A DNA stretch of 64,000 nucleotides from a virus: the IMG/VR virus record IMGVR_UViG_2710264501_000005, positions 5,929 through 69,928 of that record. One strand, written 5' to 3'. Position numbers and translations under genes: made by a program. Shown piece by piece: positions 6,909-60,679 of the stretch. Positions within the stretch are counted from its first letter, which is position 1; the number at the start of each line of letters is the position of its first letter. A model generated the notes under the pieces. The model had not been told where the DNA came from, ran no database searches, and saw only the letters and a list, made by a program, of their open reading frames with translations.

Positions 6909-6911
6909 CTT

Positions 6912-7454: not shown

Positions 7455-7475
7455 CGGATTCCCCCTCTCAGTTAG

Positions 7476-7637: not shown

Positions 7638-7669
7638 CGCTTTTCCCCTCTGTGAGACTTCTGAACCAG

Positions 7670-7773: not shown

Positions 7774-7798
7774 GCAATACTTTCATTGTACCGCCAGA

Positions 7799-8686
7799 TC
7801 AGACTTTCCCTGCCAGCACAACGCCCTCGCCGTTGCACTTGTCGCAAACGCACCATTGACGCGGATCAATCAACTCTACGAAACTCTGGATGTACGCTTC
7901 CAGTTTGGCTTTCAGGTCCTTGTAGTTCTCGCCAGCCACTTCGCGGATCTGAATTGCATTGGCTTTGTCGCGGTATTCACCGACGATGGACAGCACCTCT
8001 TTCGTGATGGTTGTTTCAGTGACCGTTTTCCATTTCGGACGACGGGCACCAACACGGGACACGTCTATACGTTCCTTGCGAGGGGCCGTTTTCAGAATGG
8101 CAGTCACTTTAAGCACCTGGATATTGCGGCAGTCGTGAAGCCTGTAAATTTCCGGGTGCTTGTTTACCTCCGCTACAACCGCCTCAGCAACCAGATCGAA
8201 AACCTGCTTCATCGGAACCCGGCATGGGTACTTGTGCTGAACGGCACGGTGGAACTTCAGGTTGGCCGGAAAGTCCACCTCAACATACGGCGGCATTTTG
8301 ACAGGCTCGCAATCGTAGTCGATGACATGGAACTCAACCGGCGTGGTGCCTTGGGGAACGTCCAGATAAACGGGCTGGTACAATTCGGCCCGCTCGCCGG
8401 TCCATTCGGACTCGTCAAAGTCAAATGTAAAGGCATCCGCTGGCAGTTGTTCGGCGATGGTCACAACCCCGACGAACTCTTCTTTCAGGCAAAACCCGAC
8501 TAGCTCTCGCTTGGCCGGAACGATCCTTTCAAGCGAAATCAAGTCGCCTTCCACCATCGCCCAATCGGAGTTTCCGGGGCACAGGACGGGCGGTTTCCCG
8601 TTGACCAAATAGTAGTGCTCGGCGTGATAGCCAAGCTCCACGTAAGACGATCCATCTTTCTTCATCACAATCAGCGGCTTAGCCAT
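7799..8686 (-). CDS. hypothetical protein, C-terminal CxxCxGxG
   Basis: 295-aa ORF ending CDKCNGEG. Confidence 0.65.
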   Translation of the reverse strand: MAKPLIVMKKDGSSYVELGYHAEHYYLVNGKPPVLCPGNSDWAMVEGDLISLERIVPAKRELVGFCLKEEFVGVVTIAEQLPADAFTFDFDESEWTGERAELYQPVYLDVPQGTTPVEFHVIDYDCEPVKMPPYVEVDFPANLKFHRAVQHKYPCRVPMKQVFDLVAEAVVAEVNKHPEIYRLHDCRNIQVLKVTAILKTAPRKERIDVSRVGARRPKWKTVTETTITKEVLSIVGEYRDKANAIQIREVAGENYKDLKAKLEAYIQSFVELIDPRQWCVCDKCNGEGVVLAGKV

Positions 8687-22848: not shown

Positions 22849-25152
22849 GTGAATGAGGATCAGTACAGAGAGTTTCTGAGCAACAAGTATCGTCTTATGC
22901 AGCCAGTAGGCTTTGAGACAGACGAAACAAAGTTCCCGTCGAAATTGTTTCCTTGGCAAGCCGATCTTGTCCGGTGGACTTGCCGGATAGGACGAAGCGG
23001 GCTGTTTGCTGATACTGGACTGGGAAAGACGCCCATGCAACTAGCGTGGGCAGAGCAGGTCGTAAGACACGAGAACAAGCCCGTCATTATACTGTGTCCT
23101 CTCGCAGTTGCACAACAGACCGTGCAGCAGGCGGATAAGTTTGATATTGGAGTCAAAGTGTCCGTATGTCGGGAAATGGCCGACATTGAAAAGCACAAGC
23201 CGGATGTTGTGGTCACAAACTATGACAGGCTTCACCTGTTCGATGTGGATGATTTTGTCGGCGTGGTTTTAGACGAAGGAAGCATTCTGAAAAACTATGC
23301 CGGGAAAACGCGGACACTGCTGATAGACAGGTTCAGGAAAACGAAGTATCGACTCATAGCTACGGCGACACCAGCCCCGAACGATCATAACGAGCTAGGC
23401 AACCATGCGGAGTTTTTGGGCGTTTTGACACGCTTGGAAATGCTCGCAAACTGGTTTAAGCATGATTCAGGAGAAACGCAAAAGTGGCGGCTACGAGGTC
23501 ACGCTGAAAGAGACTTCTGGAGATGGCTCGCCTCGTGGGCAGCGTGTATAACGGCTCCGTCTGATTTAGGCTATCCTGACGATGGCTTTGCACTTCCCGA
23601 ATTAAAGAGACACGTTCACGAAGTATCGGCTGACAACTGCCCGCCACCGGAGGGCCAGTTCTGGCACACGGATAGCGTGTCAGCCACCAAGATGCACGGT
23701 GTCAAGCGTCTTACGGCGGACGCACGGGCCGCGAAGGTAGCCGACCTGATAAACGGCGATGATGAGCAGTGGTTGATATGGGTGGATACCGACTACGAGG
23801 CAGATGCAGTCAAGCGAGCAGTTGAAGATGCCGTTGAAGTAAGGGGCTCGCACAAGACGGAAAAGAAAGAAGAGGCGTTGTTTGGATTCGCCAACGGACA
23901 AATCAAAAGGCTGATTACCAAGCCTGAGATTGCAGGGTATGGGTTAAACCTGCAAAACTGCAACAGGATGGCTTTTGCTGGCATGTCGTTCAGTTTCGAG
24001 AGAACGTATCAGGCTATCAGGAGGTGTTGGAGGTACGGTCAGACCAGACCCGTAGACGCCCACTTTATCACGAGCGATGCGGAGTCTACGGCCCTTAGTG
24101 CCGTCGAGTCAAAGGAGTGTGCGTTCAAAGAGACCCGAAAAAAACTGATCGAGTCAGTTCGTGAACATCAGAAGGCGAACATATACCGAAAGCCGCGTAA
24201 GCAGGAGACAAAGCCAGTGGAGACACACGAAGGAAACGGTTGGACCTTGCACCACGGCGACGTTGTGGACGGAATAAAACTAATTCAGGATGAATCGGTA
24301 GGGTTCTCTATTTACAGCCCGCCGTTCGCAACGCTGTTTACATATTCGGATAGTCACGAAGACATGGGCAACTGCCACAATTACGAGGAGTTCTTCGATC
24401 ATTTTGCGTTTCTCGTTCCTGAGTTGTATCGGGTAATGATGCCAGGACGGACAATGGCTGTCCATTGCATGGACCTGCCGACCACAAAGCAACACGACGG
24501 TTTTATCGGAGCAAGGGACTTCCCTGGCGATCTTATTCGTAGTTTTCAGTCAGCAGGGTTCATTTACCATGCTCGTATTTGTATCTGGAAAGACCCGCTG
24601 CTAGCAGCAGTGCGGACGCACACTATCGGGCTTGCTCACCAGCAATTAGTCAAGGATTCCGCCATCTGTCGGACAGGATGGCCTGACTACATAGTTGTCA
24701 TGAGGAAGCCGGGAGAAAATCCGAAGCCGATATCGCATCCGGACGGACTTACACACTACACCGGCGAGATCGATCCTGGTGCTGAAGCTCAAGGCGAGAA
24801 GCGGTCACATCATCGTTGGAGAGGATACGCTTCTCCTGTGTGGATGGACATTAGGCAAACGAGGACTCTGAACGGAGAGTTGGGAAAACGAGAGGCACGC
24901 GACGAAAAAGACGAAGCCCACGTTTGCCCTCTTCAACTGGACGTAATCGAGCGTTGCCTAGAGTTGTGGTCTGCTGAGGATGATCTGGTATTCAGCCCGT
25001 TTACGGGTATCGGGTCAGAGGGTTATTGTTCGGTTCGTATGGGACGGCGGTTTGTGGGGTGCGAGTTAAAAGACTCATACGTTAATGTCGCTGTCAAAAA
25101 TCTTCGGCAGGCCGAAGCCGAGGCGAAAGAGATCAACAGGACTCTTTTTTAA
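22849..25152 (+). CDS. SNF2-like helicase fused to an N4/N6 DNA methyltransferase
   Basis: ADTGLGKT, LDEGS, ATATP, QAIRRCWRYGQ; C-terminal YSPPF and FSPFTGIGSEG. Confidence 0.9.
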   Translation: MNEDQYREFLSNKYRLMQPVGFETDETKFPSKLFPWQADLVRWTCRIGRSGLFADTGLGKTPMQLAWAEQVVRHENKPVIILCPLAVAQQTVQQADKFDIGVKVSVCREMADIEKHKPDVVVTNYDRLHLFDVDDFVGVVLDEGSILKNYAGKTRTLLIDRFRKTKYRLIATATPAPNDHNELGNHAEFLGVLTRLEMLANWFKHDSGETQKWRLRGHAERDFWRWLASWAACITAPSDLGYPDDGFALPELKRHVHEVSADNCPPPEGQFWHTDSVSATKMHGVKRLTADARAAKVADLINGDDEQWLIWVDTDYEADAVKRAVEDAVEVRGSHKTEKKEEALFGFANGQIKRLITKPEIAGYGLNLQNCNRMAFAGMSFSFERTYQAIRRCWRYGQTRPVDAHFITSDAESTALSAVESKECAFKETRKKLIESVREHQKANIYRKPRKQETKPVETHEGNGWTLHHGDVVDGIKLIQDESVGFSIYSPPFATLFTYSDSHEDMGNCHNYEEFFDHFAFLVPELYRVMMPGRTMAVHCMDLPTTKQHDGFIGARDFPGDLIRSFQSAGFIYHARICIWKDPLLAAVRTHTIGLAHQQLVKDSAICRTGWPDYIVVMRKPGENPKPISHPDGLTHYTGEIDPGAEAQGEKRSHHRWRGYASPVWMDIRQTRTLNGELGKREARDEKDEAHVCPLQLDVIERCLELWSAEDDLVFSPFTGIGSEGYCSVRMGRRFVGCELKDSYVNVAVKNLRQAEAEAKEINRTLF

Positions 25153-27930: not shown

Positions 27931-28124
27931 GCGAAAAAGCCGAGGCGATTGCCATAATTGAAGAGTGCCGAGAGATCCACAAACAATGGGCAGACTGGCA
28001 GGATTCCAAAGGCGACTGGAAAGCAGAGACAAAGCCCGATGATGTAGGCGGGCCGGAATATCATCGGGAATGGGTTGCGAAGTACGAAAAGGTCTTGCGA
28101 GTATTGAAGGGGAAGTCGGAATGA
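27927..28124 (+). CDS. small hypothetical protein
   Basis: Coupled to both neighbours; has a frameshifted paralog at 4762-4938. Confidence 0.65.
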   Translation: MSEKAEAIAIIEECREIHKQWADWQDSKGDWKAETKPDDVGGPEYHREWVAKYEKVLRVLKGKSE

Positions 28125-30094
28125 GTCAGCAACCGCCATGGGAATTGATGGGCTGGTCGAAAGACCACGAAAAGGAAGCCTTTGAGCAGATCGTCCGAGC
28201 GAACCTTGTAATTCCGTTTGTGATTCAAGGACAGGGCAACGATAAGCCGGGCGTGCCGATCTGGGAGTTTGCCAAGCGGGTAAACGGCGGGCAGCACTTG
28301 CCGACGTTGAAGCAAGAGATAGGCGACTGCGTGAGCTTCGGGTGTGCTCAAGCAGGCATGTACATGAGTGCTTTTGAAATCGCATGGGCAGGCCAAGAGG
28401 AAGAGTTCAAAAGATGGTATCCGCCGTATATCTACGGCATGAGCCGCGTAGCTCCTGACCTTGGCAACGGTCGGCTTGGCAACAGCGACGGATCGACGGG
28501 AGCATGGGGAGCGGGAGCGTTGCAGAAGTACGGGGTACTGTTTGCGGACGATCAGGGCGTTCCTGCTTATTCCGGTTCGGTGGCGAAACAATGGGGCCGA
28601 TCAGGACCGCCCCGCGAGTTTCAGGAGATGGCCAAGGATAACCCGGTGAAGTCTGTTGCCAAGCTATCGAGCGTCGAAGAGATCAGAGACGCATTGATTA
28701 ACTACCATCCTTGCACAATTGCGAGTATGCGAGGGTTTGAGATGCAGCCCAAGGAATACAAAGGGCGGCATGTATTTATTCCGAGTGGTTCGTGGCCCCA
28801 CCAAATGTGTATGATCCAATGGCAAGACGATCCGTTTCCTGCGGCGTATCGCCTGAACTGCTACGACAACGAAACGGATGTGTTGACCGATCAGGGGTGG
28901 TTCCGATTCTCCGAGTTACCAGAGGATGTTCGTATAGCCACCTTGAATCCCGAGACGTTAGCTGTTGAGTATCATTCGCCAATCAGCCGAGTTGCATCGC
29001 AGTACGAAGGAGAGATGATCCATTTCAAGGCCAAAGGCGTCGATCTTCTGGTAACACCGAACCACAATATGTGGATAGCAGGAAAGTGGCCGGACCACGC
29101 GAAGTTCTCCAGATGGAAGTTTGCTACAGCCGAGACGGTTCCATCAGTGTTTGCAATAAGGAAAAATGCTGCACCTGTTGTTCAAAACGACGTACAGTCT
29201 ATCGTAGTAGCCGGTCATGAGATTTCGATGGATGATTGGCTTGAGTTCCTTGGCTGGTTTTTATCAGAGGGTTGGGCGTCTTGCCGAACAAGGATGAGGG
29301 CTAGAGCAGGAAGCAAAAAGACCGGAGGACCTTACGAGGTCGAAGAGACTGACTACTACATTGGGATTGCCAACAGCAACGAAGAACACTGCGACCGGAT
29401 ACGATCCATGCTTGGCAGATTGCCGTTTAACTTCAATGAGAAAAAGTACGGCAGATGCACACAGTTTGTTTGCTACAGTCGGGACTTAGGCAAAGAATTG
29501 GTTCCCTTTGGAAAGGCACCCCAGAAGCGAGTCCCTAATTACGTATGGGAAACTTCCGCACAGCAGCAAATGTTGCTTCTCAAGACTCTTGTAGCGGGTG
29601 ACGGTCAATGCGATGAGAGCGGATATATGAGATACAGTACCGTGTCTGTTCAACTAGCCGATGACGTTCAGAGGCTCGCGTTGAATGTTGGATTGTGTGC
29701 GGACATTACGAACATGCACACCAAGGGGAAAAAGTTTGGCAAAGCCAAGTCAAACTACGACCTATTAAAAGTATCTATCCGAGGAACGCGGTTATTGTCA
29801 ACACGAGGCGGCAAACCGTGGCATCCAGAGCGGGTTCCATACAAGGATATGGTGTATTGTGTGAATGTACCGCCGCATCATATTATCTATGTTCGGCGGA
29901 ATGGAAAAGCTTGTTGGTGTGGCCAGTCTTGGGGCGAATCGGCACATGGAAGCCCGCTAAACGGCGAGCCCGCTGGAGGTGCCTGGAATCGAGCGGAGGA
30001 TTTAGAGCGTGAGCTACGGTCGGGCGATGTGGAGGTCTACGCCCTCAGTGCTTTTGAGGGATTTCCTGGTCGGGCGAATTTCTCGCCGATTTAA
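28121..30094 (+). CDS. papain-like (C1-type) cysteine peptidase precursor containing an intein
   Basis: QEIGDCVSFG (Gln/Cys), HQMCM (His), and N|SWG split by the insert. Confidence 0.8.
   Translation: MSQQPPWELMGWSKDHEKEAFEQIVRANLVIPFVIQGQGNDKPGVPIWEFAKRVNGGQHLPTLKQEIGDCVSFGCAQAGMYMSAFEIAWAGQEEEFKRWYPPYIYGMSRVAPDLGNGRLGNSDGSTGAWGAGALQKYGVLFADDQGVPAYSGSVAKQWGRSGPPREFQEMAKDNPVKSVAKLSSVEEIRDALINYHPCTIASMRGFEMQPKEYKGRHVFIPSGSWPHQMCMIQWQDDPFPAAYRLNCYDNETDVLTDQGWFRFSELPEDVRIATLNPETLAVEYHSPISRVASQYEGEMIHFKAKGVDLLVTPNHNMWIAGKWPDHAKFSRWKFATAETVPSVFAIRKNAAPVVQNDVQSIVVAGHEISMDDWLEFLGWFLSEGWASCRTRMRARAGSKKTGGPYEVEETDYYIGIANSNEEHCDRIRSMLGRLPFNFNEKKYGRCTQFVCYSRDLGKELVPFGKAPQKRVPNYVWETSAQQQMLLLKTLVAGDGQCDESGYMRYSTVSVQLADDVQRLALNVGLCADITNMHTKGKKFGKAKSNYDLLKVSIRGTRLLSTRGGKPWHPERVPYKDMVYCVNVPPHHIIYVRRNGKACWCGQSWGESAHGSPLNGEPAGGAWNRAEDLERELRSGDVEVYALSAFEGFPGRANFSPI
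28859..29926 (+). mobile_element. 356-aa intein with LAGLIDADG-type homing endonuclease, ending in Gln
   Basis: Block A CYDNETDVLT, block B VTPNHNM, endonuclease motifs FLGWFLSEG and LLKTLVAGDG, block F VYCVNVP, end WCGQ|S. Confidence 0.85.
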
Positions 30095-30108: not shown

Positions 30109-30699
30109 ATGTTTGCCGAGTGGATTGTATTGGGTTCGCTGTTGTTCTGGATTCTTTTGGGCCTAATCAGTTTGTTGCTGATTATGTTTGTCGAAGAAGA
30201 AGCCGGAGGTCCTGGGGCGTTTGTGCTTGGATTGTTTTTGGTCGCATGGCTTTTGGTTGGCGATCTACCGGAACTGATAACCACTAAGCCTTGGCATATC
30301 GCTGGGTTAGCGGTCGGGTACATCGCAATTGGGGTCGCATGGTGTTGGCCTAAGTGGCTGTTTCTTCTCAATCGTTTGCGTATTGAGTACAAGAACGAAC
30401 TAGCTAGGTTTCTAAAACGGAACAATGCCGAAGAGGTTACAGAAGAGTTGCGGGAATCATGGTCTAGTATCGTTGAGTCTTCTTGGAAATGGAACTATGG
30501 TATGTCTTTCTCGGCAGAGACAGGCAAGCTAACCCCGCCATCGTTTGAGAAGAACCGAAGCCGCTTGATTGTATGGGCTGCCTACTGGCCTTGGAGTATG
30601 TTCTGGACGCTGCTACGCGACCCGATCAAGTGGATTGTAGACTTGTGTGGCGAGTTGTTTCAAAAGACCAGCGAATGGATGTTTCGCGGGTTTGAATGA
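30109..30699 (+). CDS. multi-TM membrane protein, paralog of 26465-27118
   Basis: Three N-terminal hydrophobic helices; WAAYWPWSM. Confidence 0.7.
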   Translation: MFAEWIVLGSLLFWILLGLISLLLIMFVEEEAGGPGAFVLGLFLVAWLLVGDLPELITTKPWHIAGLAVGYIAIGVAWCWPKWLFLLNRLRIEYKNELARFLKRNNAEEVTEELRESWSSIVESSWKWNYGMSFSAETGKLTPPSFEKNRSRLIVWAAYWPWSMFWTLLRDPIKWIVDLCGELFQKTSEWMFRGFE

Positions 30700-30707
30700 G
30701 GTGGATT

Positions 30708-31319
30708 ATGTTCAACGCAACGTGGCGGATAACGGTCTTGGCAATCGTGGTTGCCGCTGTGGTTTTGTTGCACGTTGCGGGGGTGTTTGGTTCCGATTGG
30801 GCACCTCTGCGAGAAAGCGATTGGACGCCTCTTCCAACGGTCCAAACCACTAAGCAGCAATATGCGGCAGCCCTGGAAGAGTACCAACGCGGGCGGCCTA
30901 TGCTGATTTACTATACGGCCAAGTGGTGTGCTCCATGCCGAAAGGTCAAGCCGTTGCTGCCACGGCTCCGCAAGATGGGCGTATTGGTAGAGATCGACAT
31001 AGACGAAGAGAAGTGGGCCAGAAAAGGGATGGTTCAGGCGGGCATCCCCCAAGTCGTGATCTTCTACAAGTCGGGATCGGAGAACGTGCGTTTGTCTTGG
31101 GTCGGAGTGCCCGAGATAACCGACCGCTTGCAGCGTTTCGAGGCGGAGGGGATCTACTATGACGGATCAGCCAAGATTCAGACGAGTCAATCGCGGGTGT
31201 TGTGGTCTGTCCGTGAGACGTACATTGTGCCGGGTCCGGTGAGCTATCGCCCGGCATGGGAGTTTGGAGCACGTCCGGTTTCAGGTTTTCCGATGGCCGA
31301 TTGTGGGCCTAGTGGATGA
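30708..31319 (+). CDS. exported thioredoxin-fold protein
   Basis: Hydrophobic N-terminus; YYTAKWCAPCRK and GIPQ cis-Pro motif. Confidence 0.8.
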   Translation: MFNATWRITVLAIVVAAVVLLHVAGVFGSDWAPLRESDWTPLPTVQTTKQQYAAALEEYQRGRPMLIYYTAKWCAPCRKVKPLLPRLRKMGVLVEIDIDEEKWARKGMVQAGIPQVVIFYKSGSENVRLSWVGVPEITDRLQRFEAEGIYYDGSAKIQTSQSRVLWSVRETYIVPGPVSYRPAWEFGARPVSGFPMADCGPSG

Positions 31320-31354
31320 GGTTAAGGGAGGCCGCTGGTTCAGCGGTGTTGAGT

Positions 31355-31726
31355 ATGAGCGGAATAGTAAACGACAAGGCGGCATACTGGGAGGGCTACG
31401 GAGCCGCAAGGGACGGCATCCCTGACAGTGCCAATCCGCACCAGTTTGGCAGCCCGCAATACGAGTCATGGGCCAATGGGTACACCAAGGGCAAGACGGA
31501 GAAGGTAGCCGATCCGAAGCCGGTATTCTTCTCCAAGTCCTTCTGGTCGGGCGTGGTTGTTACGCTCATGTCGATCTTGAGCTACTTCCAAGACCTGATA
31601 GCAAACAATCCCGGCAAGGCGGCAGCGATTGGGACGGGGATCGGGGTACTGATGATCGTGCTCCGGTTTCTGACCGATCAGCCCGTGACGCCCAACGTGA
31701 CGATCAAAAAGTTCGAGCCGAAGTAA
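31355..31726 (+). CDS. holin-like 2-TM protein with N-terminal Rmf/CrpP-like motif
   Basis: AYWEGYGAA..G.....NPH......ESWANGY; KPVFFSKSFW followed by two TM segments. Confidence 0.5.
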   Translation: MSGIVNDKAAYWEGYGAARDGIPDSANPHQFGSPQYESWANGYTKGKTEKVADPKPVFFSKSFWSGVVVTLMSILSYFQDLIANNPGKAAAIGTGIGVLMIVLRFLTDQPVTPNVTIKKFEPK

Positions 31727-31738: not shown

Positions 31739-31747
31739 TGGTATAAT
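31739..31747 (+). promoter_or_regulatory. extended -10 promoter (TG-n-TATAAT) upstream of csf1
   Basis: TGGTATAAT ends 27 nt before the csf1 ATG. Confidence 0.6.
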
Positions 31748-31774
31748 GGTGCCGTCACACCAATCGAGGGCGAT

Positions 31775-32497
31775 ATGATGACGGCAACCACTCTATTTGC
31801 ACTAGCCAGGGGGCTCCCCGTGCCCGCTGGTAGTCACCGATGCTTTTACTGCCTAGCTCCATGTACGGAAAAGCACCCGGCCGCACATCACGTGAAAAAA
31901 TCTTTTACCTCACGCGATACCGTGGGCGGCGGCAACTACGTATGCGGTGGTTGCGTGGCGGCGATGGACGAAAAGGCCACGGTAACTTTGCCGGACGGGA
32001 CGGTAAGACACCGGCAAAAGGTTCGTTGCTATTCGTGGATTGTTACAGAAAACGAAGCGATTGCTGCAACAAAGTCTCACCGGAAGTACCTGTTTGAAAG
32101 GTGCCTTAATCCTCCGCTACCGCCGTTCGTGATCTGCATTTCAGACAGCGGGCAGAAGCATCTGCTGTATCGTTCTGCCGTATGTCACTCTCAGGACACG
32201 ATCACGATATCTTTAGAGGCGGAGCCCGTTTCCTGCAGACCAGTCGATCTAGAGAAACGTGTCTTGCTTTGCAATCGCTTGTCGGCTGCTATCGGCAAGC
32301 CCGCTCTGACGTTGCCGTTGACGGTTTCAGCACAGATACGAGTAGCAGAATATCACCAGGACGAATCGTTAGTTGCGGAGTGGCTATCCGTACAAGCCCA
32401 ACCGTTATCCAGGCTAGCCATCTGGTTCGCTCTTTCCAAAAAGGAAGCTGAAAGTGAAATCCGACCAAAAGCCGCTGTTGGGAGAATTGACTACTGA
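31775..32497 (+). CDS. csf1: type IV CRISPR-associated large subunit Csf1 (Cas8-like)
   Basis: CFYC and CGGC zinc motifs, SGQKHLLY, and position ahead of Csf2 and Csf3. Confidence 0.78.
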   Translation: MMTATTLFALARGLPVPAGSHRCFYCLAPCTEKHPAAHHVKKSFTSRDTVGGGNYVCGGCVAAMDEKATVTLPDGTVRHRQKVRCYSWIVTENEAIAATKSHRKYLFERCLNPPLPPFVICISDSGQKHLLYRSAVCHSQDTITISLEAEPVSCRPVDLEKRVLLCNRLSAAIGKPALTLPLTVSAQIRVAEYHQDESLVAEWLSVQAQPLSRLAIWFALSKKEAESEIRPKAAVGRIDY

Positions 32498-32942
32498 GGA
32501 GTTCAGGCTGCGTCTTGCCTGCCTGATTGACCCGCATGAAAAGATCGCTTCCGATCAACGTGCGATTATTAAAGATTTGGCTATCCAGTTTGCAGCCGAA
32601 TTGCCAGCATTGTTTGGGGAAACACTAGACAGAGTAACGATGTGGGACAGAATAGGCAGCGGTTTGCAATCTGCGTTCGCAAAAAGTGCGGGTGCCGATT
32701 ATGAGTTTTTTGTCAATGATGTTCTAGACCACATAAAGGCTTCGCCATCTCAAGCATCTGCGAATGAGAATATTGAAGTAGTTCTCTCTACGCTGGATGG
32801 ATGGAGTATCTCTGACCGGCAGGCTTGGCTATCGTATTTTCACACACATCTAATTCCTGTTCTGGTTCGCGCTCGATCTGCATGGGCGAACAAGAAGAAG
32901 TCAAGTAAGAAGTCAGCACACGTTTCGGAGGGCGGCAAATGA
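32454..32942 (+). CDS. cas11: alpha-helical small subunit (Cas11-like)
   Basis: About 160 aa, all-helical, between csf1 and csf2 as in type IV-B. Confidence 0.55.
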   Translation: MKSDQKPLLGELTTEEFRLRLACLIDPHEKIASDQRAIIKDLAIQFAAELPALFGETLDRVTMWDRIGSGLQSAFAKSAGADYEFFVNDVLDHIKASPSQASANENIEVVLSTLDGWSISDRQAWLSYFHTHLIPVLVRARSAWANKKKSSKKSAHVSEGGK

Positions 32943-33787
32943 ACACCTATACGATTCAGTGCATCAGCACCGCGATTAGCCCGCTTACCCACATGAGCGG
33001 CACTGCTGGCAACGTGGCGATGATCGCTCGCGAACCCGTGAATACTGACACCGGAATTGTATGGCTGCCGTTTTTGTCTGGAAACGCACTACGGCACCGA
33101 TGTATCCGAGAGCCCGGAATCATGTGGTTGATTTACGAATACGATTTAGCAGGCAAGTTATCGCTTCCGCAGTTGAACTTCCTGTTGCATGGAGGCAATC
33201 TTACGGAGTCCAATGCTCACGAAAATACGAAGCGGATTGCCGAAATGCATCGCACATGGCCACTGTTGCGTCTACTTGGGGCATCGCTTCCGAACCAGAT
33301 TTTGGCAGGCAGTCTGGATGTTTGGCGTGGCACGATGGTCTGCGAGGAAAACCGTCGATCATTGGCGATGGTTATGGACATGCCACCGGAACGACTGTGT
33401 TCGGCAGAGCGTTTTGTGGGCGAATACCAGTACACCCGCAGCGACGCCGGAAAACGAGCATTGGAGAAGAGCCCGGATGCGTTGCCTGCTACAACGAACT
33501 TGATGATATTTTCTGGCCAATGCGTCCAGCGAGGTGCCGTGTTCCATCACGGTTTTGTCGCAAAGCATGTTTCGGAAATTGAGTTAGGAGCGTTACTGTG
33601 GTCGCTGAGGCTGTGGCAATACAATGGCGGGACTATAGGTGGCCAAGCGGCACGAGGGCATGGGCGACTGAGGTGTGAGCTGATGGCAGGCACGTTTGAC
33701 CAATCCGGTATGTGCCAGCAGTATATTGAATACGCCAGAGGGGTAAAAGATGACGCAATCGCATGGCTCTACGATGCGTGGAAGTAG
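32939..33787 (+). CDS. csf2: type IV Cas7-like backbone RAMP Csf2
   Basis: TAISPLTH, PFLSGNALRH, LLHGGNL, LRLLGASL, G-rich loop IGGQAARGHGR. Confidence 0.85.
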   Translation: MNTYTIQCISTAISPLTHMSGTAGNVAMIAREPVNTDTGIVWLPFLSGNALRHRCIREPGIMWLIYEYDLAGKLSLPQLNFLLHGGNLTESNAHENTKRIAEMHRTWPLLRLLGASLPNQILAGSLDVWRGTMVCEENRRSLAMVMDMPPERLCSAERFVGEYQYTRSDAGKRALEKSPDALPATTNLMIFSGQCVQRGAVFHHGFVAKHVSEIELGALLWSLRLWQYNGGTIGGQAARGHGRLRCELMAGTFDQSGMCQQYIEYARGVKDDAIAWLYDAWK

Positions 33788-34451
33788 TTACCTGAAAATC
33801 ACTGCACACTTAGCTTCACCGATTGTTGGCGACGTACCATTCCTGGATGCGATCCTTGAATACGAAATGGCCCAACGGTTGGGCCTGGCAGGCAAGATTC
33901 AGCGTCATGAAGTGGCACCGCCTTATGGACAAGTGCATATTCCCATGCTTCGCAGGCGGATTGGCGGTATGCTTGTGCCAAGCTGTTCCTCGCCGATATG
34001 TGCTCCGCAGCACGAGGCGGTGGAGTACTTCGCAAAGCGGTTCGCAGTCGAACAGGCTGGATTATTGGATGAAAAGAAACGGCTTGTCGTGGCGATGAGT
34101 AACAGTACGTACAAGAGCTATCGTCTGCCGCTTCACATGCGGGCTTGTGATCGAGTGGTGTGGTTTGCGGCTGCCCATCGTCGGCCGGTTCTCAAACTGT
34201 TGAAGTCTGTTAATTCGCTAGGGAAAAAACGGAGTTACGGATACGGACGAGTGGCCAGATGGGAGGCCGAACCTTGGCACGAAGACTGGTCGTGGTGGTT
34301 AGTTACAGAGAAAGGGTCGGTATTGATGCGTCCGCTGCCATTATGCGACGATCTGCCCTCAGACCTAATCGGCTATCGGCGAGATTTCGGTGCTTGCCAG
34401 CCGCCGATGTGGCATCCCGACAGGTATTGTGAGAGGGTAGTACCATGCTAA
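33774..34451 (+). CDS. csf3: type IV Cas5-like RAMP Csf3
   Basis: LKITAHLASP, LDAIL, G-rich loop LGKKRSYGYGRV, C-terminal RPLP...PPMWH. Confidence 0.82.
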   Translation: MRGSSYLKITAHLASPIVGDVPFLDAILEYEMAQRLGLAGKIQRHEVAPPYGQVHIPMLRRRIGGMLVPSCSSPICAPQHEAVEYFAKRFAVEQAGLLDEKKRLVVAMSNSTYKSYRLPLHMRACDRVVWFAAAHRRPVLKLLKSVNSLGKKRSYGYGRVARWEAEPWHEDWSWWLVTEKGSVLMRPLPLCDDLPSDLIGYRRDFGACQPPMWHPDRYCERVVPC

Positions 34452-34999
34452 GCAATCTGGACATAATGACTTCGGATCTTCCATTCGGCAAGGTCGATGC
34501 AATCTACACTGATCCGCCGTGGGGATCGGCAAACCTGAAATACTGGCGGACGATGAACGGCGAGCGAGGTGCAGCAGTAGATTGGCAAGCGTTTTTAAAT
34601 CGCTTGTTCACGATATTCAAGACTCACTGCCCGTTTGGTCCCTGGTATATTGAGACTGGCACAAGGTTCGTGACGGATGTAATTGATGCATCGCCGATAT
34701 CTTGCTCAAAGCGATGGAAATGCAGATACCGAGCTGGATCAAAGTGGTTGCCGAATGTGCTGCTTTTGTTCGGCGGAGTAGAGCCAAAAGCCACACTTGC
34801 AGAGTCCAAGAGAACCGGATTGCCGCTTGTGCTGTGGGCATTAGGCGATATGCCGCCCGGATCGACGGTCCTAGATCCTTGTTGCGGACTAGGAACAACC
34901 GCCAAGGCGTGCCTTCGGTTGGGTCTGAATTTTTGCGGAAACGAACTCAATCCGAACCGGCTGGAGCGAACCCGCAAGATTTTGGAGCGAAGACAGTGA
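34445..34999 (+). CDS. amino-methyltransferase (DPPW type)
   Basis: IYTDPPWG (motif IV) and VLDPCCGLGTT (motif I). Confidence 0.8.
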   Translation: MLSNLDIMTSDLPFGKVDAIYTDPPWGSANLKYWRTMNGERGAAVDWQAFLNRLFTIFKTHCPFGPWYIETGTRFVTDVIDASPISCSKRWKCRYRAGSKWLPNVLLLFGGVEPKATLAESKRTGLPLVLWALGDMPPGSTVLDPCCGLGTTAKACLRLGLNFCGNELNPNRLERTRKILERRQ

Positions 35000-35901
35000 T
35001 TATCTTAGGCACACCGTTCAACGCCAAGGTGAAACGAATTCAGGACCACGTTGCCGATACGGGAGCAAAGCGGGTCGTGGTCTTGTCGCCTAGCAAATTC
35101 CAAATGGACATGCCAGAGGAATGGGATGTTGTCGAGTGGTCAGATATCATTATGTACCGCACATTCTACCGCCTCTTGCAAGAGATCGACCCTGCGACTC
35201 TCCTGGTCATTAATGAGTGTCTTAGGGTGAGCAATCGGAGTGACCTGACGTACAACTGTATCAGGCACTTTGCCGCACAGACCAGAAATGTTTTGGTGTT
35301 CCAATATCTGCCGATCATCGACGATCTTGCAGATTTCATGACGCTGGTTGACTTCGTAACAGGCAGCAGGTTTAAGGGTCTTCCGTGGTCCAGTGAGGTT
35401 GCTAAAGCCGTCACCATCACAGGCAGGGAGGTGCCCGTTCAATTTCGAGAGATCCGCGTAGAAGCAAGCCAGAAGACGCGAGCGACCTATCAGCGTGAAC
35501 GTGATAGAGCGTTCGAGCAACTGGGTGCGAAAGACCCGCACACAATCCCAAGGAACCTCTATCAGATTACAGGCAGGGATCGATTGGCTGCGACAACTGA
35601 TCGGGATCTGGTAGGGCGAAACAACCGATTTAAGATAAGCCGGATGCAGCTTTTTCGTGACAGGTCTTTCCGCACTCCGAGTACGATTTTCGAGGTGTCT
35701 CATTCGATCAGAGATGTTGTGGATTTCTTGAGTTTGTCTGAACAAGAGGACATTCCGTTTATCGCTACGGATGTAAAAGTAGACCAGTGGTACTACCAAC
35801 AAACGCGAGCATGGGAGGGTCGACTTCGTGAAGCCTACGCAGCGATACGATCAGCGAACCGTCCTGGAAGCTTCTATCCAGAGGATATCGCTGCTGTTTG
35901 A
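34996..35901 (+). CDS. degenerate SF2/SNF2-like helicase-fold protein
   Basis: LLVINECLR in place of DExx; no Walker A; GTG start overlaps the upstream stop. Confidence 0.5.
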   Translation: MIILGTPFNAKVKRIQDHVADTGAKRVVVLSPSKFQMDMPEEWDVVEWSDIIMYRTFYRLLQEIDPATLLVINECLRVSNRSDLTYNCIRHFAAQTRNVLVFQYLPIIDDLADFMTLVDFVTGSRFKGLPWSSEVAKAVTITGREVPVQFREIRVEASQKTRATYQRERDRAFEQLGAKDPHTIPRNLYQITGRDRLAATTDRDLVGRNNRFKISRMQLFRDRSFRTPSTIFEVSHSIRDVVDFLSLSEQEDIPFIATDVKVDQWYYQQTRAWEGRLREAYAAIRSANRPGSFYPEDIAAV

Positions 35902-36961
35902 CATGTATGACAACCTGATTGTGTCTGTCAGCGGCGGCAAGGACAGTACTGTACTAGCCGCGTTAGCTTTGGAAGAGGCGTCACGGCGGCGACGGAAGAT
36001 CGGGCTGTTTTTTCTGGACGAAGAGGTTGTCTATCAGGCGACGGTCGATCAGGTCGAATACCTCATGTCGATCTTCCCGGAATGGACTAATCGCTTGTGG
36101 CTTCAAGTCGAGTTCAACCTGACCAACGCCACTTCTGCCACGGAGACTCAGTTACTTTGTTGGGAGGAGGGTAAGCATAAGCAGTGGATGCGATCGAAGG
36201 GCAAAAACAATATTGTTGCACCACCTTGGGGACGCGGCAGTGAAGTAACGATCCGGGATAAAAGAAAAGGGTTTGGTTTTTACGATGTGATAGACAACTT
36301 CGAGGCTTGTTACAGCGATACAGCATTTTTAATAGGGTTGCGAGCAACGGAAGGCCCCAATCGGTTCAGGGCTGTGTCCAAAAATCCGGTCGTCAAAAAC
36401 GGCGTATCGATCTATTACGGCACGTCGAAACCGCATGGAAATGCGGCGTTTTATCCGATCTATGATTGGAACTTCCATGACGTTTGGAAGTTCATTTATG
36501 ACCGCAAGCTTCGATACAACAAAATCTATGACATGCAATTCCGCAAGGGATTGCCGCTGGCACAGATCCGATGTTCGTCACTGATTCACGAGCGGTCTTT
36601 TAAGAGCCTTTGCGAACTCCCGGAGTTTGAGCCGAAGACGTATGCAAAGCTTCTCAAGCGGGCAAAGGGAATTGGACTGGCCCAAGAGACTGGCAAAAAC
36701 GCCAAGATGTTCGCGGCAAGGAAGCTTCCGAAAAACTATACGTCGTGGAGAAGATACAGAGATGTACTATTGGCGACTCATCCAGATCCGCTTGGAAAAG
36801 ATGTGCTTGCAAAGCGGTTCTCGAAGCAACTAGACAACGAATATGTAGCCAGACAGCAGTGTCGGCAGTTGATTCTTAACGACTACGAAAACAATGTCGG
36901 CATAGACAACCGCCCGGACCCACGCGAAGAACTTATAGAGTACTACAGGAGTGTGCTGTGA
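35828..36961 (+). CDS. ibrA: PAPS-reductase-like PP-loop protein, IbrA/DUF3440-like
   Basis: VSVSGGKDS, FFLDEE, IGLRATEGPNR, FYPIYDWNFHDVW. Confidence 0.78.
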   Translation: MKPTQRYDQRTVLEASIQRISLLFDMYDNLIVSVSGGKDSTVLAALALEEASRRRRKIGLFFLDEEVVYQATVDQVEYLMSIFPEWTNRLWLQVEFNLTNATSATETQLLCWEEGKHKQWMRSKGKNNIVAPPWGRGSEVTIRDKRKGFGFYDVIDNFEACYSDTAFLIGLRATEGPNRFRAVSKNPVVKNGVSIYYGTSKPHGNAAFYPIYDWNFHDVWKFIYDRKLRYNKIYDMQFRKGLPLAQIRCSSLIHERSFKSLCELPEFEPKTYAKLLKRAKGIGLAQETGKNAKMFAARKLPKNYTSWRRYRDVLLATHPDPLGKDVLAKRFSKQLDNEYVARQQCRQLILNDYENNVGIDNRPDPREELIEYYRSVL

Positions 36962-37524
36962 TTGATACACTAGATGAATTAAGGAATCAGATTGGCTTGC
37001 GAAGTGTGTTCGTCGGTCAAATCAAGATCCCGTGCATGAACGTTATGTTAGTAAATCGGGATTTAGTTGTTGCCAATACGTACAACCCCAATTCCGTTCC
37101 TCCCGACAGGCTGGAGTTGCTTCGCGTTTCGATTCTTTCCAACGGATTTTGTTTTCCGGTTGTCACGATATGGGATGACGACCTCGAAAAGCTTGTCATT
37201 GTCGATGGGTTTCATCGTTATCTATTAACAGGGCCAGACTGGTTGGACATGCGGCACGTGCCTGTAGTAGTACTGGAACACGGCCCGAGCCAGCGTATGG
37301 CTGCAACTGTTCAGTTCAACAAGGCAAGAGGTGTTCATCAGATCGATCTAGACGCCGATATCGTGCGTGCACTGATAGAACAGGGCATCGACGAAAGGGA
37401 GGTAGCAGAGCAGCTTGGCATGGACTTGGATGCGGTCCATCGTTACAAGCAAGTCACGGGAATTGTTGAGCTATTCAAAGGTGTGCAGTACTCCGCAGCT
37501 TGGGAGATTGCCGATGCTGATTGA
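36958..37524 (+). CDS. ibrB: ParB/Srx-domain protein, IbrB-like
   Basis: ANTYNPNSVPP, SILSNGFCFPVV, IVDGFHRY, TVQFNKARGVH. Confidence 0.8.
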   Translation: MIDTLDELRNQIGLRSVFVGQIKIPCMNVMLVNRDLVVANTYNPNSVPPDRLELLRVSILSNGFCFPVVTIWDDDLEKLVIVDGFHRYLLTGPDWLDMRHVPVVVLEHGPSQRMAATVQFNKARGVHQIDLDADIVRALIEQGIDEREVAEQLGMDLDAVHRYKQVTGIVELFKGVQYSAAWEIADAD

Positions 37525-38278
37525 GTCTCCAAGACACACACCAGCAGACCTCAACTTGTGGGTTGACCACGAAGAGGCCGATTTACAACACAGCATGTCA
37601 CGGCGGGAGCAGGAAGCAAAGGAGGCGATTGTACAGTTTACAGACCAGTTGCCGTGTTATGCGGGCGTTTCGTGGGGCAAGGATTCTGTTGTGATAGCCC
37701 ATCTCTTGCGACGCTACGCTCCGGATGTTTCGTTAATGCACTTGCGGCCTACCAACCACAATCCAGACTGTGATGCGGTGCGAGACATCTATTTTGATTT
37801 GTTTCCCGGCCAAGCATATGAAGAGGTTTTCGTGTCTTATGATGGCTTAGATCGGACGATGCTTGATCGTGGCAGTTTAGACCGGCTCACAGACCAGCGG
37901 TGGTATGCAGCGATACGAGAATACGGAAAGGAGTTCCGCCAAAGGCACATCTTGGGTATACGTGCAGAAGAATCGACCGGCCGGCGATTTCGTGTAATGC
38001 GTTGGGGGTTGGCATCTCCTAATGCCTGTGCTCCTATCGGTAGGTGGAGCACTGCGGATGTGTTTGCCTATCTCGCGTGTCACGGCTTGCCGGTCCACCC
38101 GGCGTATGCGATGCTTGGGGGCGGCAGGTGGCGACGCGACCGAATCCGGGTGGCTGAGATTGGTGACACTCACGGCACGGGGTCCGGCCGTGAAGAGTGG
38201 GAGCGGGAGTATTACGGCGACGTACTGAGGAGGTTAGAGTGTCGATCAAGGATCGTGTCAAGGAATTGCGGCGAGTGA
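37514..38278 (+). CDS. CysH-like PP-loop protein (type IV-B-associated type)
   Basis: VSWGKDSVV, LGIRAEESTGR, PIGRWSTADVFAYL. Confidence 0.8.
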   Translation: MLIESPRHTPADLNLWVDHEEADLQHSMSRREQEAKEAIVQFTDQLPCYAGVSWGKDSVVIAHLLRRYAPDVSLMHLRPTNHNPDCDAVRDIYFDLFPGQAYEEVFVSYDGLDRTMLDRGSLDRLTDQRWYAAIREYGKEFRQRHILGIRAEESTGRRFRVMRWGLASPNACAPIGRWSTADVFAYLACHGLPVHPAYAMLGGGRWRRDRIRVAEIGDTHGTGSGREEWEREYYGDVLRRLECRSRIVSRNCGE

Positions 38279-38835
38279 AGGCTTCGGAATTGGTGCCACA
38301 CCCCGGCAACTACCGGAGGCATCCAGAGATACAAAAACACGCCCTAGCTGGCGTTTTGGCGGAACTTGGCTACTGTTCCGCCTTGGTAGCCAGGGAGCTT
38401 CCAGACGGCCGTTTGGGGCTGCTAGATGGCCATTTACGGGCTGACCTGACGCCAGACGAAGAGGTGCCGGTTGTGGTGGTGGACTTGACGGAGGAAGAGG
38501 CCAAAAAGTTCCTTGTCACGTTCGACCCTTTGACCAGCCTAGCGGAAACCGATCAGGAGATATTGGACGGGCTGCTAGAGGGCTTGGGGGGCGGTCCAGA
38601 GTTCCAGGTGAGTTTGACGGAGTTGTGGCCGGATGCTTTCAAGGAATCGATCCCAGAGCCGCCAGCGGAGCCTTTCGAGGGCGACAAGATCGACTGGTCG
38701 AGGCCGTTGATGCTGACTGCCGAGCAGCGTGCGATAGTAGATCAGGCGATTGCCAAGATTCGGACGATGGAGAATGATGCAGGAATAGCAGAGGGCCGCT
38801 GTATTGAGCTTGCGTTAGCCGACTGGCTGAGCTAG
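38239..38835 (+). CDS. ParB/Srx-domain protein
   Basis: LVPHPGNYRRH, LLDGHLRA, EVPVVVVDL. Confidence 0.78.
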   Translation: MSIKDRVKELRRVKASELVPHPGNYRRHPEIQKHALAGVLAELGYCSALVARELPDGRLGLLDGHLRADLTPDEEVPVVVVDLTEEEAKKFLVTFDPLTSLAETDQEILDGLLEGLGGGPEFQVSLTELWPDAFKESIPEPPAEPFEGDKIDWSRPLMLTAEQRAIVDQAIAKIRTMENDAGIAEGRCIELALADWLS

Positions 38836-39187: not shown

Positions 39188-39487
39188 TTACCCGTTTTGC
39201 TGGCCGTTGATCCCTAGCAGTTTGAGGCTTTCGGAGTCGTTTCCGTGCAGTTCTCGGATACGTTCAACGCACTCGTCAAAGCCCTTTGTGAACTGGTAAT
39301 AGGCACGCTGTCCCGATTCGATCTTGGAGAAAATTTCGGAGAGGTGCTTGCGGATACGTTCCGATTCGTCGGCTATGGCATCGTCGATGATTTCATCGGG
39401 TGTGGCGTCGATCAGAACGAAGTCGTCTACCACGCTAGACCAGACGGCGTAGAGTCCGTTTGGCTGTTTGACGATCTGCCTACCCAT
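39188..39487 (-). CDS. hypothetical protein
   Basis: MGRQIVKQPNGLYAVWSSVVD. Confidence 0.6.
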   Translation of the reverse strand: MGRQIVKQPNGLYAVWSSVVDDFVLIDATPDEIIDDAIADESERIRKHLSEIFSKIESGQRAYYQFTKGFDECVERIRELHGNDSESLKLLGINGQQNG

Positions 39488-40694
39488 TGGCTTTCTCCCT
39501 TGCTTCTTTTTCTTTCAGGGCTTCGACGGCGGCCTTGAGGATATCAAGTTCTTTTGCAGACACGGCGGAACTGGCGGGGTACAGACGAAGATTGGCTTCT
39601 AACGACGCGAACAGCTTTTCCGCTTCTGCCGATGTGGGCTTCGGGGGCTTGGTGGCATCGCGGATTACAGTGGGGGCGTCTGCGAGGTTATCGACCACAC
39701 AGCAAAATCTGGTAAGCCCTTCGTCATGGTCGATGTTGGCGATATACCACGAACCATCGTCGCGGCGGGCAAACTCCCATTCGTGCTTGCCGGCGTCGGC
39801 GGCTTCCTGTAGTGCCTCCGCCAGTGTGTCCTCATGGTGCGAGCGTAGCCGGATGATTCGAGTAGTGAACCAGTTGCCTAGTTCGCTGACGTTTACCGGG
39901 TCTGCAACCCATTCGGCAACCCACTCGGCTGCAAGTTCTTTTGCTGTTTTGCGGTCGATCCTGTCTCTGGCTTTCTGATCTGACAGCAGTTGGGCCAATC
40001 GGTTGCCTTGTGACACGTATTGATTCGTGACTTCGGCAAGTTCCCGTTGCAGTGCCGTTACCTTTTCGATCAGCAGGCCGACAACTTCGGCGGCTTGCAA
40101 CGTGAATTGTTCGTCGAATTCATCGAACACAGCCTCGCCTAAATCGGTGGTTTTGTATCCTTTCCAGTCTTGTGTAACCTGCTTGGCGAGTTCCTTGAAC
40201 CATTCTGGTAGTTCTTTCACGGGTTTACCCTTTCTGGTTTTTTTCTCGTTCGCCTCAGCGATGGCCGCTCGAACAACACTCAAAACGGCATCGTCGAAAT
40301 CACAACGACCGTGATTCGTCCAAGTGGACTCAATCTGCCGCAGAGCCAGAAGATCCCTTTCCTGCTCGAAGTTACCACGCTCAATGCTTCCATGCGTGGT
40401 CATGTGTACGTCCAGAGCGAGCGTCAACACAGAGCGATCATCCAATATGTCAGCAACCCATTTTTCCCGGTACATATCGTCTTTCCGTTCAGGGAGGTTG
40501 TGCAGCACACAGAAAGGGCAGGCGTTTCCGAACCCGTCGCCGCCTTTCGGCGTTAGTCTGTCAGCCTCTTGCCAACCAGCTAGCCAGTTCTTCCAGAGCA
40601 TGGAGCCTGCTTTGTAGGGGTTGCCCTCGACGGGCACCCCGTCGTCGCGTCGGGCTTCGTAGCCTGTTTGGAATCCCGGTGGTTTGTCGCTCAT
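39480..40694 (-). CDS. mosaic coiled-coil protein with N-terminal Rmf/CrpP-like motif
   Basis: GYEA....P...NPY.......WLAGWQEA followed by helical segments. Confidence 0.55.
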   Translation of the reverse strand: MSDKPPGFQTGYEARRDDGVPVEGNPYKAGSMLWKNWLAGWQEADRLTPKGGDGFGNACPFCVLHNLPERKDDMYREKWVADILDDRSVLTLALDVHMTTHGSIERGNFEQERDLLALRQIESTWTNHGRCDFDDAVLSVVRAAIAEANEKKTRKGKPVKELPEWFKELAKQVTQDWKGYKTTDLGEAVFDEFDEQFTLQAAEVVGLLIEKVTALQRELAEVTNQYVSQGNRLAQLLSDQKARDRIDRKTAKELAAEWVAEWVADPVNVSELGNWFTTRIIRLRSHHEDTLAEALQEAADAGKHEWEFARRDDGSWYIANIDHDEGLTRFCCVVDNLADAPTVIRDATKPPKPTSAEAEKLFASLEANLRLYPASSAVSAKELDILKAAVEALKEKEAREKANG

Positions 40695-41330
40695 GCTACG
40701 CCTTCTACTTGTTCGATGGCTTCCCTTAGTTGCTTGGCTAGTGGGCTGTTTTCCCACTGGTCATTCTCGCAGTCTTCCAGGGCGGCTTTGCAGGCGGCGA
40801 GCAATACATCAAGGTTGCTATCCTGCACCTGCCACCAGAGGAGGCAATCTAAACAGGGGCAGTCGCGGCGTTTGTGAGGTTTGGACTTCATGCCACCTTC
40901 TTTTTTTGTCCGTGTCATGCCTACTCTCCTGTCTTGATGTACTGGTCACGCCTAGCTTCTAGAAACAGCCCGGCGTCACAAGAGTTTTTGAACCGGGCAA
41001 TCGCCTTGGGTTCTTTTTCCGCATCGCAGATGACATAGGGATATGTTTCGTGCAGTTTGCCAGTGTAGCAGTAGAACCGCAGCCGGGCGGTCTTTTGTCG
41101 TTCGGTGGCTCTGACTCTTAGGGTCATGGTTCGTCGTCCCTTTCAAAAACATACGTAACCACCCAAAGCGGCTTGCGAAACCACGTCAATGGATTCCACC
41201 AGCGTGGAACGCGAACCACTCTGCCATTGATGAGTTTCAGATGGTATCCGCCCAACGTAAGACCTTCGTGCAATTCGTTTAAGCAGTCGGCTTCCTTGAG
41301 GTGCTGAAATACTAGATCATCGTCGCTCAT
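40691..41330 (-). CDS. three small hypothetical ORFs (40691-40918, 40921-41127, 41124-41330)
   Basis: Co-directional and closely coupled. Confidence 0.5.
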
Positions 41331-60608: not shown

Positions 60609-60679
60609 GGGCGTTAGCGGCAAGGTGCCGCGATGGGCTTTCAATCCCATTATGGCGGGTTCGATTCCCGCAACGCCCC
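60609..60679 (+). tRNA. atypical tRNA, 8-nt anticodon loop CUUUCAAU (Glu UUC, or UCA)
   Basis: Acceptor GGGCGTT/AACGCCC, D-stem GCGG/CCGC, anticodon stem ATGGG/CCCAT, T-arm GCGGG-TTCGATT-CCCGC; no encoded CCA. Confidence 0.6.

Follow-up and report, generated by a model that had tools for sequence, protein, structure and literature searches.

Type IV-B is among the least understood of the CRISPR-Cas subtypes; none of the reviews consulted, which extend to 2024, assigns it a function, and they name the CysH protein as the only clue (PMC8175902, PMC11656645, PMC7038947). What, then, does an array-less IV-B effector do in a phage genome, where it shares one operon with six further genes? This question is raised by the IMG/VR virus record IMGVR_UViG_2710264501_000005 (77,889 bp; CheckV completeness 97%), of which bases 5929-69928 (the 64-kb window analyzed here) had previously been annotated from sequence alone. 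The record encodes both the small and the large terminase subunit (TerS, TerL), a portal protein, and a head-morphogenesis protein, and thus belongs to a tailed phage. IV-B loci are already known from phages and prophages (PMC11656645, PMC7038947), one from an archaeal virus has been reported with cysH and a mini-array (bioRxiv 10.1101/2023.08.24.554615), and some published IV-B loci are drawn with an N6-methyltransferase or an ADP-ribosyltransferase. What the present locus adds is a recurrent linkage of phage-borne IV-B genes with a four-gene cassette. Two modules make up the locus. The first is a bona fide array-less IV-B effector (csf1, cas11, csf2, csf3) with its canonical CysH partner, and the second is a self-standing and widespread phage cassette (methyltransferase, SNF2-like protein, IbrA, IbrB), nested between csf3 and cysH. 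We consider it fairly probable that the two work together in a single pathway of nucleic-acid modification or counter-defence.

The operon consists of ten co-oriented open reading frames (ORFs) at 31775-38835, whose ends abut or overlap, in the following order (coordinates are those of the window; aa, amino acids):

31775-32497, plus strand: csf1, type IV Cas8-like large subunit, 240 aa (PADLOC typeIV_Cas8, 2.3e-60, full length)
32454-32942, plus strand: cas11, type IV small subunit, 162 aa (PADLOC typeIV_Cas11, 1.4e-26)
32939-33787, plus strand: csf2, type IV Cas7 backbone subunit, 282 aa (PADLOC typeIV_Cas7, 1.3e-78)
33750-34451, plus strand: csf3, type IV Cas5, 233 aa (PADLOC typeIV_Cas5, 8.3e-33)
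34445-34999, plus strand: small beta-class N6-adenine-type DNA methyltransferase, 184 aa (Pfam N6_N4_Mtase, 5.4e-8)
34996-35901, plus strand: SNF2-fold protein without Walker A, 301 aa (AlphaFold2 (AF2) model, pLDDT 91.4)
35828-36961, plus strand: IbrA-like PP-loop ATP-pyrophosphatase, 377 aa (Pfam PAPS_reduct, 5e-14; DUF3440, 5e-7)
36958-37524, plus strand: IbrB-like ParB/Srx-fold protein, 188 aa (phrog_2159, 2.2e-46; TIGR00180 parB, 4e-3)
37514-38278, plus strand: cysH-like gene (CasCysH), 254 aa, PP-loop intact (Pfam PAPS_reduct, 6e-9)
38197-38835, plus strand: second ParB-like protein, 212 aa, last gene (phrog_498, 7e-14; phrog_620, 9e-12)

All ten gene calls of the first-pass annotation were essentially right, and its statement that the accessory set exceeds the usual single cysH agrees with the gene identities. 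Two starts were corrected: that of the cysH-like gene to ATG 37514 (254 aa, overlapping ibrB by 11 nt) from the first TTG at 37415, and that of the SNF2-like gene to GTG 34996 (301 aa, with a 4-nt overlap at the methyltransferase stop). The csf3 and methyltransferase genes overlap by 7 nt.

All four Cas proteins gave full-length matches to PADLOC type IV models, with weaker matches in general libraries, and the family profiles of three of the four (Csf1, Csf2 and Csf3) also matched solved type IV subunits. Csf1 is a small Cas8-like protein instead of a Cas10-like HD protein. It matched TIGR03114 at 3.6e-13, its family profile matched PDB Csf1 (8rc3_G) at 7e-6, and the four cysteines of its CxxC...CxxC pattern (C23, C26, C57, C60) were invariant in 17 sequences. 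The Csf2 profile matched a PDB Cas7c (11fs_C) at 1.1e-10 and the Mycobacterium IV-B Csf2 (7jhy_e) at 2e-5; the general-library match of Csf2 was weak (2e-4). For Csf3, the profile matched PDB Csf3 (7xfz_B) over its full length at 1.8e-6 and TIGR03116 was found at 1.6e-3, while the true start of the gene may be ATG 33774. Cas11 was located between csf1 and csf2 in 18 loci, and its AF2 model was all-helical (pLDDT 87.6). A PDB profile search with Cas11 and a Foldseek search with its model returned no type IV match, only weak Csm2 rows; the identity of the protein is settled by the match to the PADLOC type IV Cas11 model. PHROGs exist for Csf2 (22746) and Csf3 (34599). The order csf1-cas11-csf2-csf3 was invariant in 17 IMG/VR loci and in several metagenome contigs.

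The first-pass annotation had assigned the RAMP ORFs to Csf2 and Csf3 and had found no cas1, cas2, cas6, dinG or CRISPR array in the window. The former was confirmed when the profile search matched these ORFs to type IV models, and the latter holds for the whole 77.9-kb record. There, neither a k-mer scan, TRF nor a repeat finder detected CRISPR-like spaced repeats, and no match to Cas1, Cas2, Cas6_C or Helicase_C_2 (DinG-type) was obtained. The other 115 ORFs gave no strong match to a Cas model among the best 25 of 51 matched families. Array, Cas6/Csf5, DinG/RecD helicase and adaptation module are thus all absent, with a gap of 3% of the genome, as is general for arrays in IV-B loci (PMC7038947). 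Together, the PADLOC and PDB profile matches and the whole-record searches for repeats and genes bear out the claim of a phage-encoded, array-less IV-B effector.

The fifth member of this module is the CysH-like protein. Its orthologues (phmmer E 1e-44 to 1e-106) follow csf3 in the same 17 IMG/VR loci, usually directly and otherwise nearby. S-x-GKDS and G-x-R-x-x-E were invariant in 18 sequences and no cysteine was. The profile matched PDB CysD at 6.5e-9 and 3'-phosphoadenosine 5'-phosphosulfate (PAPS) reductases at 9e-6. A csf3-linked cysH-like gene without a catalytic cysteine is also what characterizes IV-B loci elsewhere: CasCysH has been predicted to be an ATP alpha-hydrolase that keeps the PP-loop and has no conserved catalytic cysteine (PMC8175902). 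The IV-B loci of Mycobacterium sp. JS623 (PDB 7jhy) and of Rhodococcus plasmids encode the same five families as the phage operon and, like it, belong to a mobile element and have neither array, cas6 and dinG nor adaptation genes. Across the whole protein, however, sequence identity between the phage Csf2 and its counterparts on plasmids of Rhodococcus, Gordonia and archaea is only 24-29%. Two further differences stand out. The carrier is a tailed phage, whereas that of classical IV-B is an actinobacterial or archaeal plasmid. Furthermore, the phage cysH is co-oriented with the csf genes and separated from csf3 by the four-gene insert, whereas in the examined Rhodococcus plasmid cysH is found upstream and on the other strand, next to a gene for ParA.

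An effector without an array invites explanations in which its RNA comes from elsewhere. The Csf complex might be a decoy that soaks up host CRISPR RNAs (crRNAs) or other small RNAs, in the manner of a ribonucleoprotein-type anti-CRISPR, with the cassette acting separately against restriction in a two-pronged island. The phage has no array and no cas6 of its own, and the Mycobacterium IV-B complex assembles on heterogeneous RNA (PMC7937560). A role against restriction or Dnd has moreover been suggested for phage homologues of PAPS reductase (PMC13551039). Pinilla-Redondo et al. put the decoy idea forward for IV-B but judged such a complex anti-CRISPR unlikely (PMC7038947). It would leave the near-invariant CysH partner with its intact PP-loop unexplained. 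Neither a host CRISPR repeat nor a solitary repeat unit turned up in the phage, a negative that counts for little with the host unidentified. We regard a decoy as quite improbable. We give still less credence to the idea that the complex loads crRNAs of the host or of a co-resident element and represses competitors or host genes in the way of type IV-A, while CysH and the cassette mark the site. The complete Cascade-like set of subunits, the transcriptional repression exerted by type IV-A (PMC11656645) and the archaeal-virus mini-array mentioned above would all suit such borrowing of guides. However, the phage record holds no Cas6, array, mini-array or helicase of this kind, IV-B loci generally lack arrays, and the operon of the relatives has no conserved non-coding space within or beside it; the genes simply abut.

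The remaining question is what the other genes contribute. In the methyltransferase, DPPW (motif IV) at residues 23-26 precedes motif I at about residues 144-150, which is the order of the beta class, and xPPW and motif I were conserved in 35 sequences. Its profile matched PDB 5hek, a DpnA-type adenine DNA methyltransferase, over nearly the full length at 3e-10, as well as CcrM and MboIIA. The 184-aa sequence has no obvious target-recognition domain (TRD). Judged by its closest solved relatives, the enzyme would make N6-methyladenine (m6A).

The SNF2-like protein belongs to no Pfam, NCBIfam, PHROG or PADLOC family. With its AF2 model, the top Foldseek matches were cores of SNF2-family ATPases (INO80, ISW1, SNF2h, Chd1), with E-values down to 7e-8 and a TMq of up to 0.63, and the nearest Atlas clusters were short viral SNF2-related proteins. 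An active SNF2 helicase or translocase has two RecA-like lobes and carries a Walker A motif (GxGKT) and DExx. The protein here has no GKT and an invariant N-E-C at the DExx position, and its 301 aa fall far below the ATPase core of about 450 aa. According to the model, it is SNF2 in fold and is not classed as an active helicase. Its homologues (n=544) are about 288 aa long.

IbrA matched phrog_2302 at 6.6e-76 and has homologues in 222 isolated phages. SGGKDS was invariant in 23 sequences, which shared no conserved cysteine. The IbrB profile matched PDB Noc (1e-4) and ParB (0.01), and both D-G-x-H-R and an N-terminal P-C were invariant. Neither IbrB nor the SNF2-like protein is probably an enzyme in the usual sense. 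A PAPS_reduct and DUF3440 protein beside a ParB-like protein is the composition of known IbrA/IbrB pairs of prophages and phages (PHROGs 2302 and 2159), which also occur in isolated phages of Flavobacterium, Mycobacterium, Streptococcus and Arthrobacter. In the loci studied here, by contrast, the pair is always accompanied by the SNF2-fold protein without Walker A and the small N6-adenine methyltransferase, and it is often linked to IV-B. None of the publications covered by literature searches describes this cassette or its linkage to IV-B. A cryoconite phage published with 'IbrA/B, CRISPR/Cas' was considered and set aside; it has another arrangement, and its CRISPR-Cas is a type I-E system with arrays.

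The distribution of the two modules was surveyed with profiles, which succeeded in IMG/VR, while a single-sequence locus search there found nothing. When the operon, Csf2 and the SNF2-like protein were used as queries against the genomes of isolated phages, neither nucleotide nor tblastn searches gave a match, and the phage csf family was seen in metagenomes only. These held 410 Csf2 homologues of 57-75% identity, and the close subfamily (E up to 1e-30) comprised 103 clusters at 50% identity. About 14 of the 17 Csf2-seeded loci were IV-B loci without the four-gene cassette. Conversely, the SNF2-like profile retrieved 37 IMG/VR contigs. The SNF2-like gene was accompanied by ibrA, ibrB and the methyltransferase gene in all 35 distinct phage contigs that could be checked at both ends, and the remaining two run off the contig end. 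ibrA and ibrB were adjacent in 37 of 37 loci with ibrB always second, and the methyltransferase gene occupied one of two places, ahead of the SNF2-like gene or behind ibrB. In most of the cassette contigs no csf gene lay within 10 kb, and a ParB-like and IbrA-like pair without csf was also found in isolated phages, e.g. Flavobacterium phage FCV-1. Since most cassette contigs are free of csf, the cassette is autonomous and cannot depend on the Cas scaffold. The first-pass annotation had described six accessory enzymes in the service of that scaffold. The neighbourhood survey did not support this reading: CysH is the canonical IV-B partner, kept with csf3 in the relatives, and the four cassette genes mostly occur without csf.

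The two modules are nevertheless linked repeatedly and in rearranged orders. The csf genes and cysH adjoin the cassette in 11 of the 37 contigs, and in addition in the window and in two metagenome contigs (L024, L026). At least eight linked arrangements were distinguished, in both orientations: the nested one of the window, one with the methyltransferase gene moved, convergent ones (L024, L031), one with the cassette upstream of csf1 (L052), and interleaved ones (L032, and L033 with the order csf2-cysH-methyltransferase-SNF2-like-ibrA-ibrB-csf3). The full ten-gene arrangement recurs in a 106-kb relative (L002, the same contig as L008 and L027). Linkage is kept across Csf2 lineages that share no more than about 40% identity (L019), and also in a second lineage with a long Csf2 of about 400 aa. 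Of the 2.9 million viral contigs, pattern scans picked out only tens for each module, yet about 30% of the cassette contigs carry IV-B, so that the co-occurrence lies far above chance. In the IbrA tree, csf-linked sequences were clustered and yet spread across several clades, which requires at least three changes of state; strongly supported branches alone demand at least two within the csf-linked group. L026, the contig with the nearest Csf2 relative (75% identity), carries an IbrA of another clade than that of the window, which points to shuffling of the modules.

These data have to be weighed against the view that two unrelated accessory systems merely share a hot spot between the replication/recombination and the packaging genes, with no functional coupling. 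Each module stands alone in most loci, the mosaic tree, as exemplified by L026, fits independent traffic through such a site, and in the relatives the csf operon adjoins terminase and portal genes, with HNH, terminase and portal directly downstream, which is a typical site for methyltransferases and other cargo. Against a mere hot spot speak the enormous enrichment of co-occurrence and the persistence of the link over distant and long-Csf2 lineages. The interleaved orders (L032, L033 and the window), in which the cassette splits off cysH or csf3, and the overlapping junctions in the window (csf3/methyltransferase and ibrB/cysH) are likewise hard to reconcile with it. We hold the hot-spot account to be possible but rather unlikely. 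A linkage far above chance that is found in many orders, in both orientations and with interleaving favours cooperation.

Several side observations were made on individual contigs. The same cassette accompanies a second Csf lineage (L029-L033, L037, L040, L050, L052), whose Csf2 ORFs of 330-520 aa mostly have 70-230 residues before the Cas7 domain and in which no separate cas11 was detected. The long Csf2 may represent a fusion of Cas11 with Csf2 or result from ORFs called too long. The SNF2-like/ibrA/ibrB triplet is tandemly duplicated in L058-L062 and the ibrA/ibrB pair in L051 and L054; the loci with duplicated cassettes have a single methyltransferase gene, and the paralogues are divergent on the IbrA tree. 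On a contig of an Acidobacteria metagenome-assembled genome (L025), a full SNF2 helicase (6637-8004; SNF2-rel_dom, Helicase_C, 455 aa) lies directly upstream of a cassette of the order SNF2-like/ibrA/ibrB/methyltransferase, with an AcrVA2-like gene nearby and no csf genes. L002 has a third PAPS-reductase-like gene (370 aa, 3496-4608), about 4 kb upstream of its csf1.

What the cassette might do was approached by comparison with known systems. Like Dnd, Ssp and BREX type 4 (BrxP), it combines a PP-loop enzyme of the PAPS reductase family with a ParB-superfamily protein, as do DndC and DndB (PMC10853773, PMC12914056); models of DndC and BrxP gave partial matches only, at 1e-4 to 1e-5. Unlike these systems, neither PP-loop protein of the phage unit has a conserved cysteine, the unit includes neither a cysteine desulfurase nor a P-loop ATPase (DndD, SspC, BrxC), and its sole NTPase-fold protein lacks Walker A. 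The cysteines or Fe-S site, desulfurase and P-loop ATPase of the DNA phosphorothioation machinery are hence missing. With no conserved cysteine in IbrA or CysH and neither a desulfurase nor a P-loop ATPase, phosphorothioation or thiolation is unlikely. As far as the conserved residues suggest, a more natural chemistry for the PP-loop would be adenylation, after which a nucleophile other than sulfur attacks. A second comparison is offered by ParB-dependent phage modification (the 5mYOX thymine dioxygenase with ParB, and DpdA with DpdB), where a short ParB-like gene likewise lies beside a modifying enzyme and the ParB-like partner is required for action on duplex DNA (PMC13229309, PMC12839542). 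The partner enzyme here is a PP-loop ATPase, in place of a dioxygenase or transglycosylase, and dependence on ParB would hold for it by analogy.

The best explanation, in our view, is cooperation of the two modules in one pathway, for which the following course of events is proposed. The target of the cassette would be DNA, most probably that of the phage itself. The enzymes would be loaded onto duplex DNA or activated there by the ParB-like protein together with the ATPase-dead SNF2-like scaffold, for which DndB/DndC, DpdB/DpdA and phage ParB/thymine dioxygenase are precedents (PMC10853773, PMC12839542, PMC13229309). The methyltransferase would install m6A, while IbrA would adenylate a position in the nucleic acid that is then substituted by a non-sulfur nucleophile. 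Csf1, Cas11, Csf2 and Csf3 may form an RNA-bound filament like the Mycobacterium IV-B complex, beside which CysH would work as an ATP alpha-hydrolase or adenylyltransferase. Both modules would serve one modification or counter-defence pathway, in which the paralogous PP-loop enzymes CysH and IbrA may share related chemistry. The notion of an RNA-bound platform that directs modification, put forward in the first-pass annotation, is still hypothetical. In its most specific form, the Csf filament would hold RNA or an R-loop, and CasCysH and IbrA, acting with the ParB-like loader, the SNF2-like scaffold and the TRD-less methyltransferase, would carry out a modification that depends on adenylation and involves no sulfur, so as to protect the phage from host defence; we think this version unlikely.

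A number of points weigh against cooperation. Each module is mostly found alone, so neither strictly needs the other, and the linkage could arise because both lie in the same variable or anti-defence hot spot, which immediately precedes the packaging genes. The sampled loci come from related phages, so that locus counts exceed independent events. Both the substrate (DNA or RNA) and the chemistry are suggested by family resemblance only. Finally, IbrA of Escherichia coli is reportedly a co-activator of prophage gene expression and not a modification enzyme (PMC4490671).

Whatever their chemistry, the Cas genes of a sizeable phage-borne IV-B lineage stand repeatedly in one cluster with a defined four-gene cassette, and this linkage gives a concrete handle on the function of IV-B. 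It points experiments to specific partners and to adenylation-dependent, non-sulfur chemistry, probably on DNA, and the compact ten-gene operons could be expressed whole. It also provides context for large phage families that lack a known role, namely 'IbrA/IbrB' and '288-aa hypothetical'. If true, the modification machine would be the first function of IV-B, with a Cas complex guiding chemical modification instead of cleavage or repression.

As to expression of the operon, a promoter-like element lies in front of it:

31739-31747, plus strand: extended -10 promoter-like element TGGTATAAT, in the 48-bp gap before csf1, read from the sequence

The exact string TGNTATAAT has this as its sole match on both strands of the window, where shuffles give an expectation of 0.53, and the position of TGGTATAAT is thus unlikely to be due to chance. 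The earlier description of ten overlapping or abutting genes behind an extended -10 therefore stands. No good -35 was seen upstream of TGGTATAAT, and the element was not conserved upstream of csf1 in the relatives; we infer that it is active as a promoter. Read-through transcription is also possible, since the upstream genes are co-oriented and tightly packed. Rfam returned no RNA family near the operon.

The last gene of the operon, encoding the second ParB-like protein, is its least conserved member, as orthologues were found only after cysH in L002 and after csf3 in L006. The protein matches the N-terminal part of phrog_498, a ParB-methyltransferase family, and phrog_620, which is ParB-like. 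Beyond it, minus-strand genes converge on the 3' end of the operon.

Some neighbouring genes deserve mention. The gene at 30696-31319 (plus strand), the second one upstream of csf1, encodes a protein with a thioredoxin fold and a hydrophobic N-terminus; it is not conserved beside csf1 in the relatives and is therefore probably unrelated to the PAPS-reductase-like enzymes. The ORFs flanking the operon (31316-31726, plus strand; 39480-40757, minus strand) have stretches resembling ribosome modulation factor, with sub-threshold Pfam matches (E 8e-5 and 2e-5, respectively). ARAGORN reported a tRNA gene (60609-60679, plus strand; Rfam tRNA, 35.3 bits) whose anticodon has four bases ('ttca') and to which no amino acid could be assigned. 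This odd tRNA and the short ORFs downstream prompted a check for stop-codon recoding, which was rejected; neither code 4 (TGA=W) nor TAG=Q lengthens the ORFs near the tRNA, and there is thus no sign of recoding.

Elsewhere, the phage encodes a 767-aa fusion (22849-25152, plus strand) of a complete SNF2 helicase (SNF2-rel_dom, Helicase_C) and a beta-class N6_N4 DNA methyltransferase. The possibility that the methyltransferase and SNF2-like pair of the operon is a split paralogue of this fusion was rejected, as no significant similarity was found: the fusion resembles the operon methyltransferase at the level of motifs only and has no significant similarity to the SNF2-like protein. A 674-aa ORF (28070-30094, plus strand) contains a LAGLIDADG_3 domain and gives short matches to thymidylate synthase and ribonucleotide reductase PHROGs, and may be an intein-containing gene of nucleotide metabolism.

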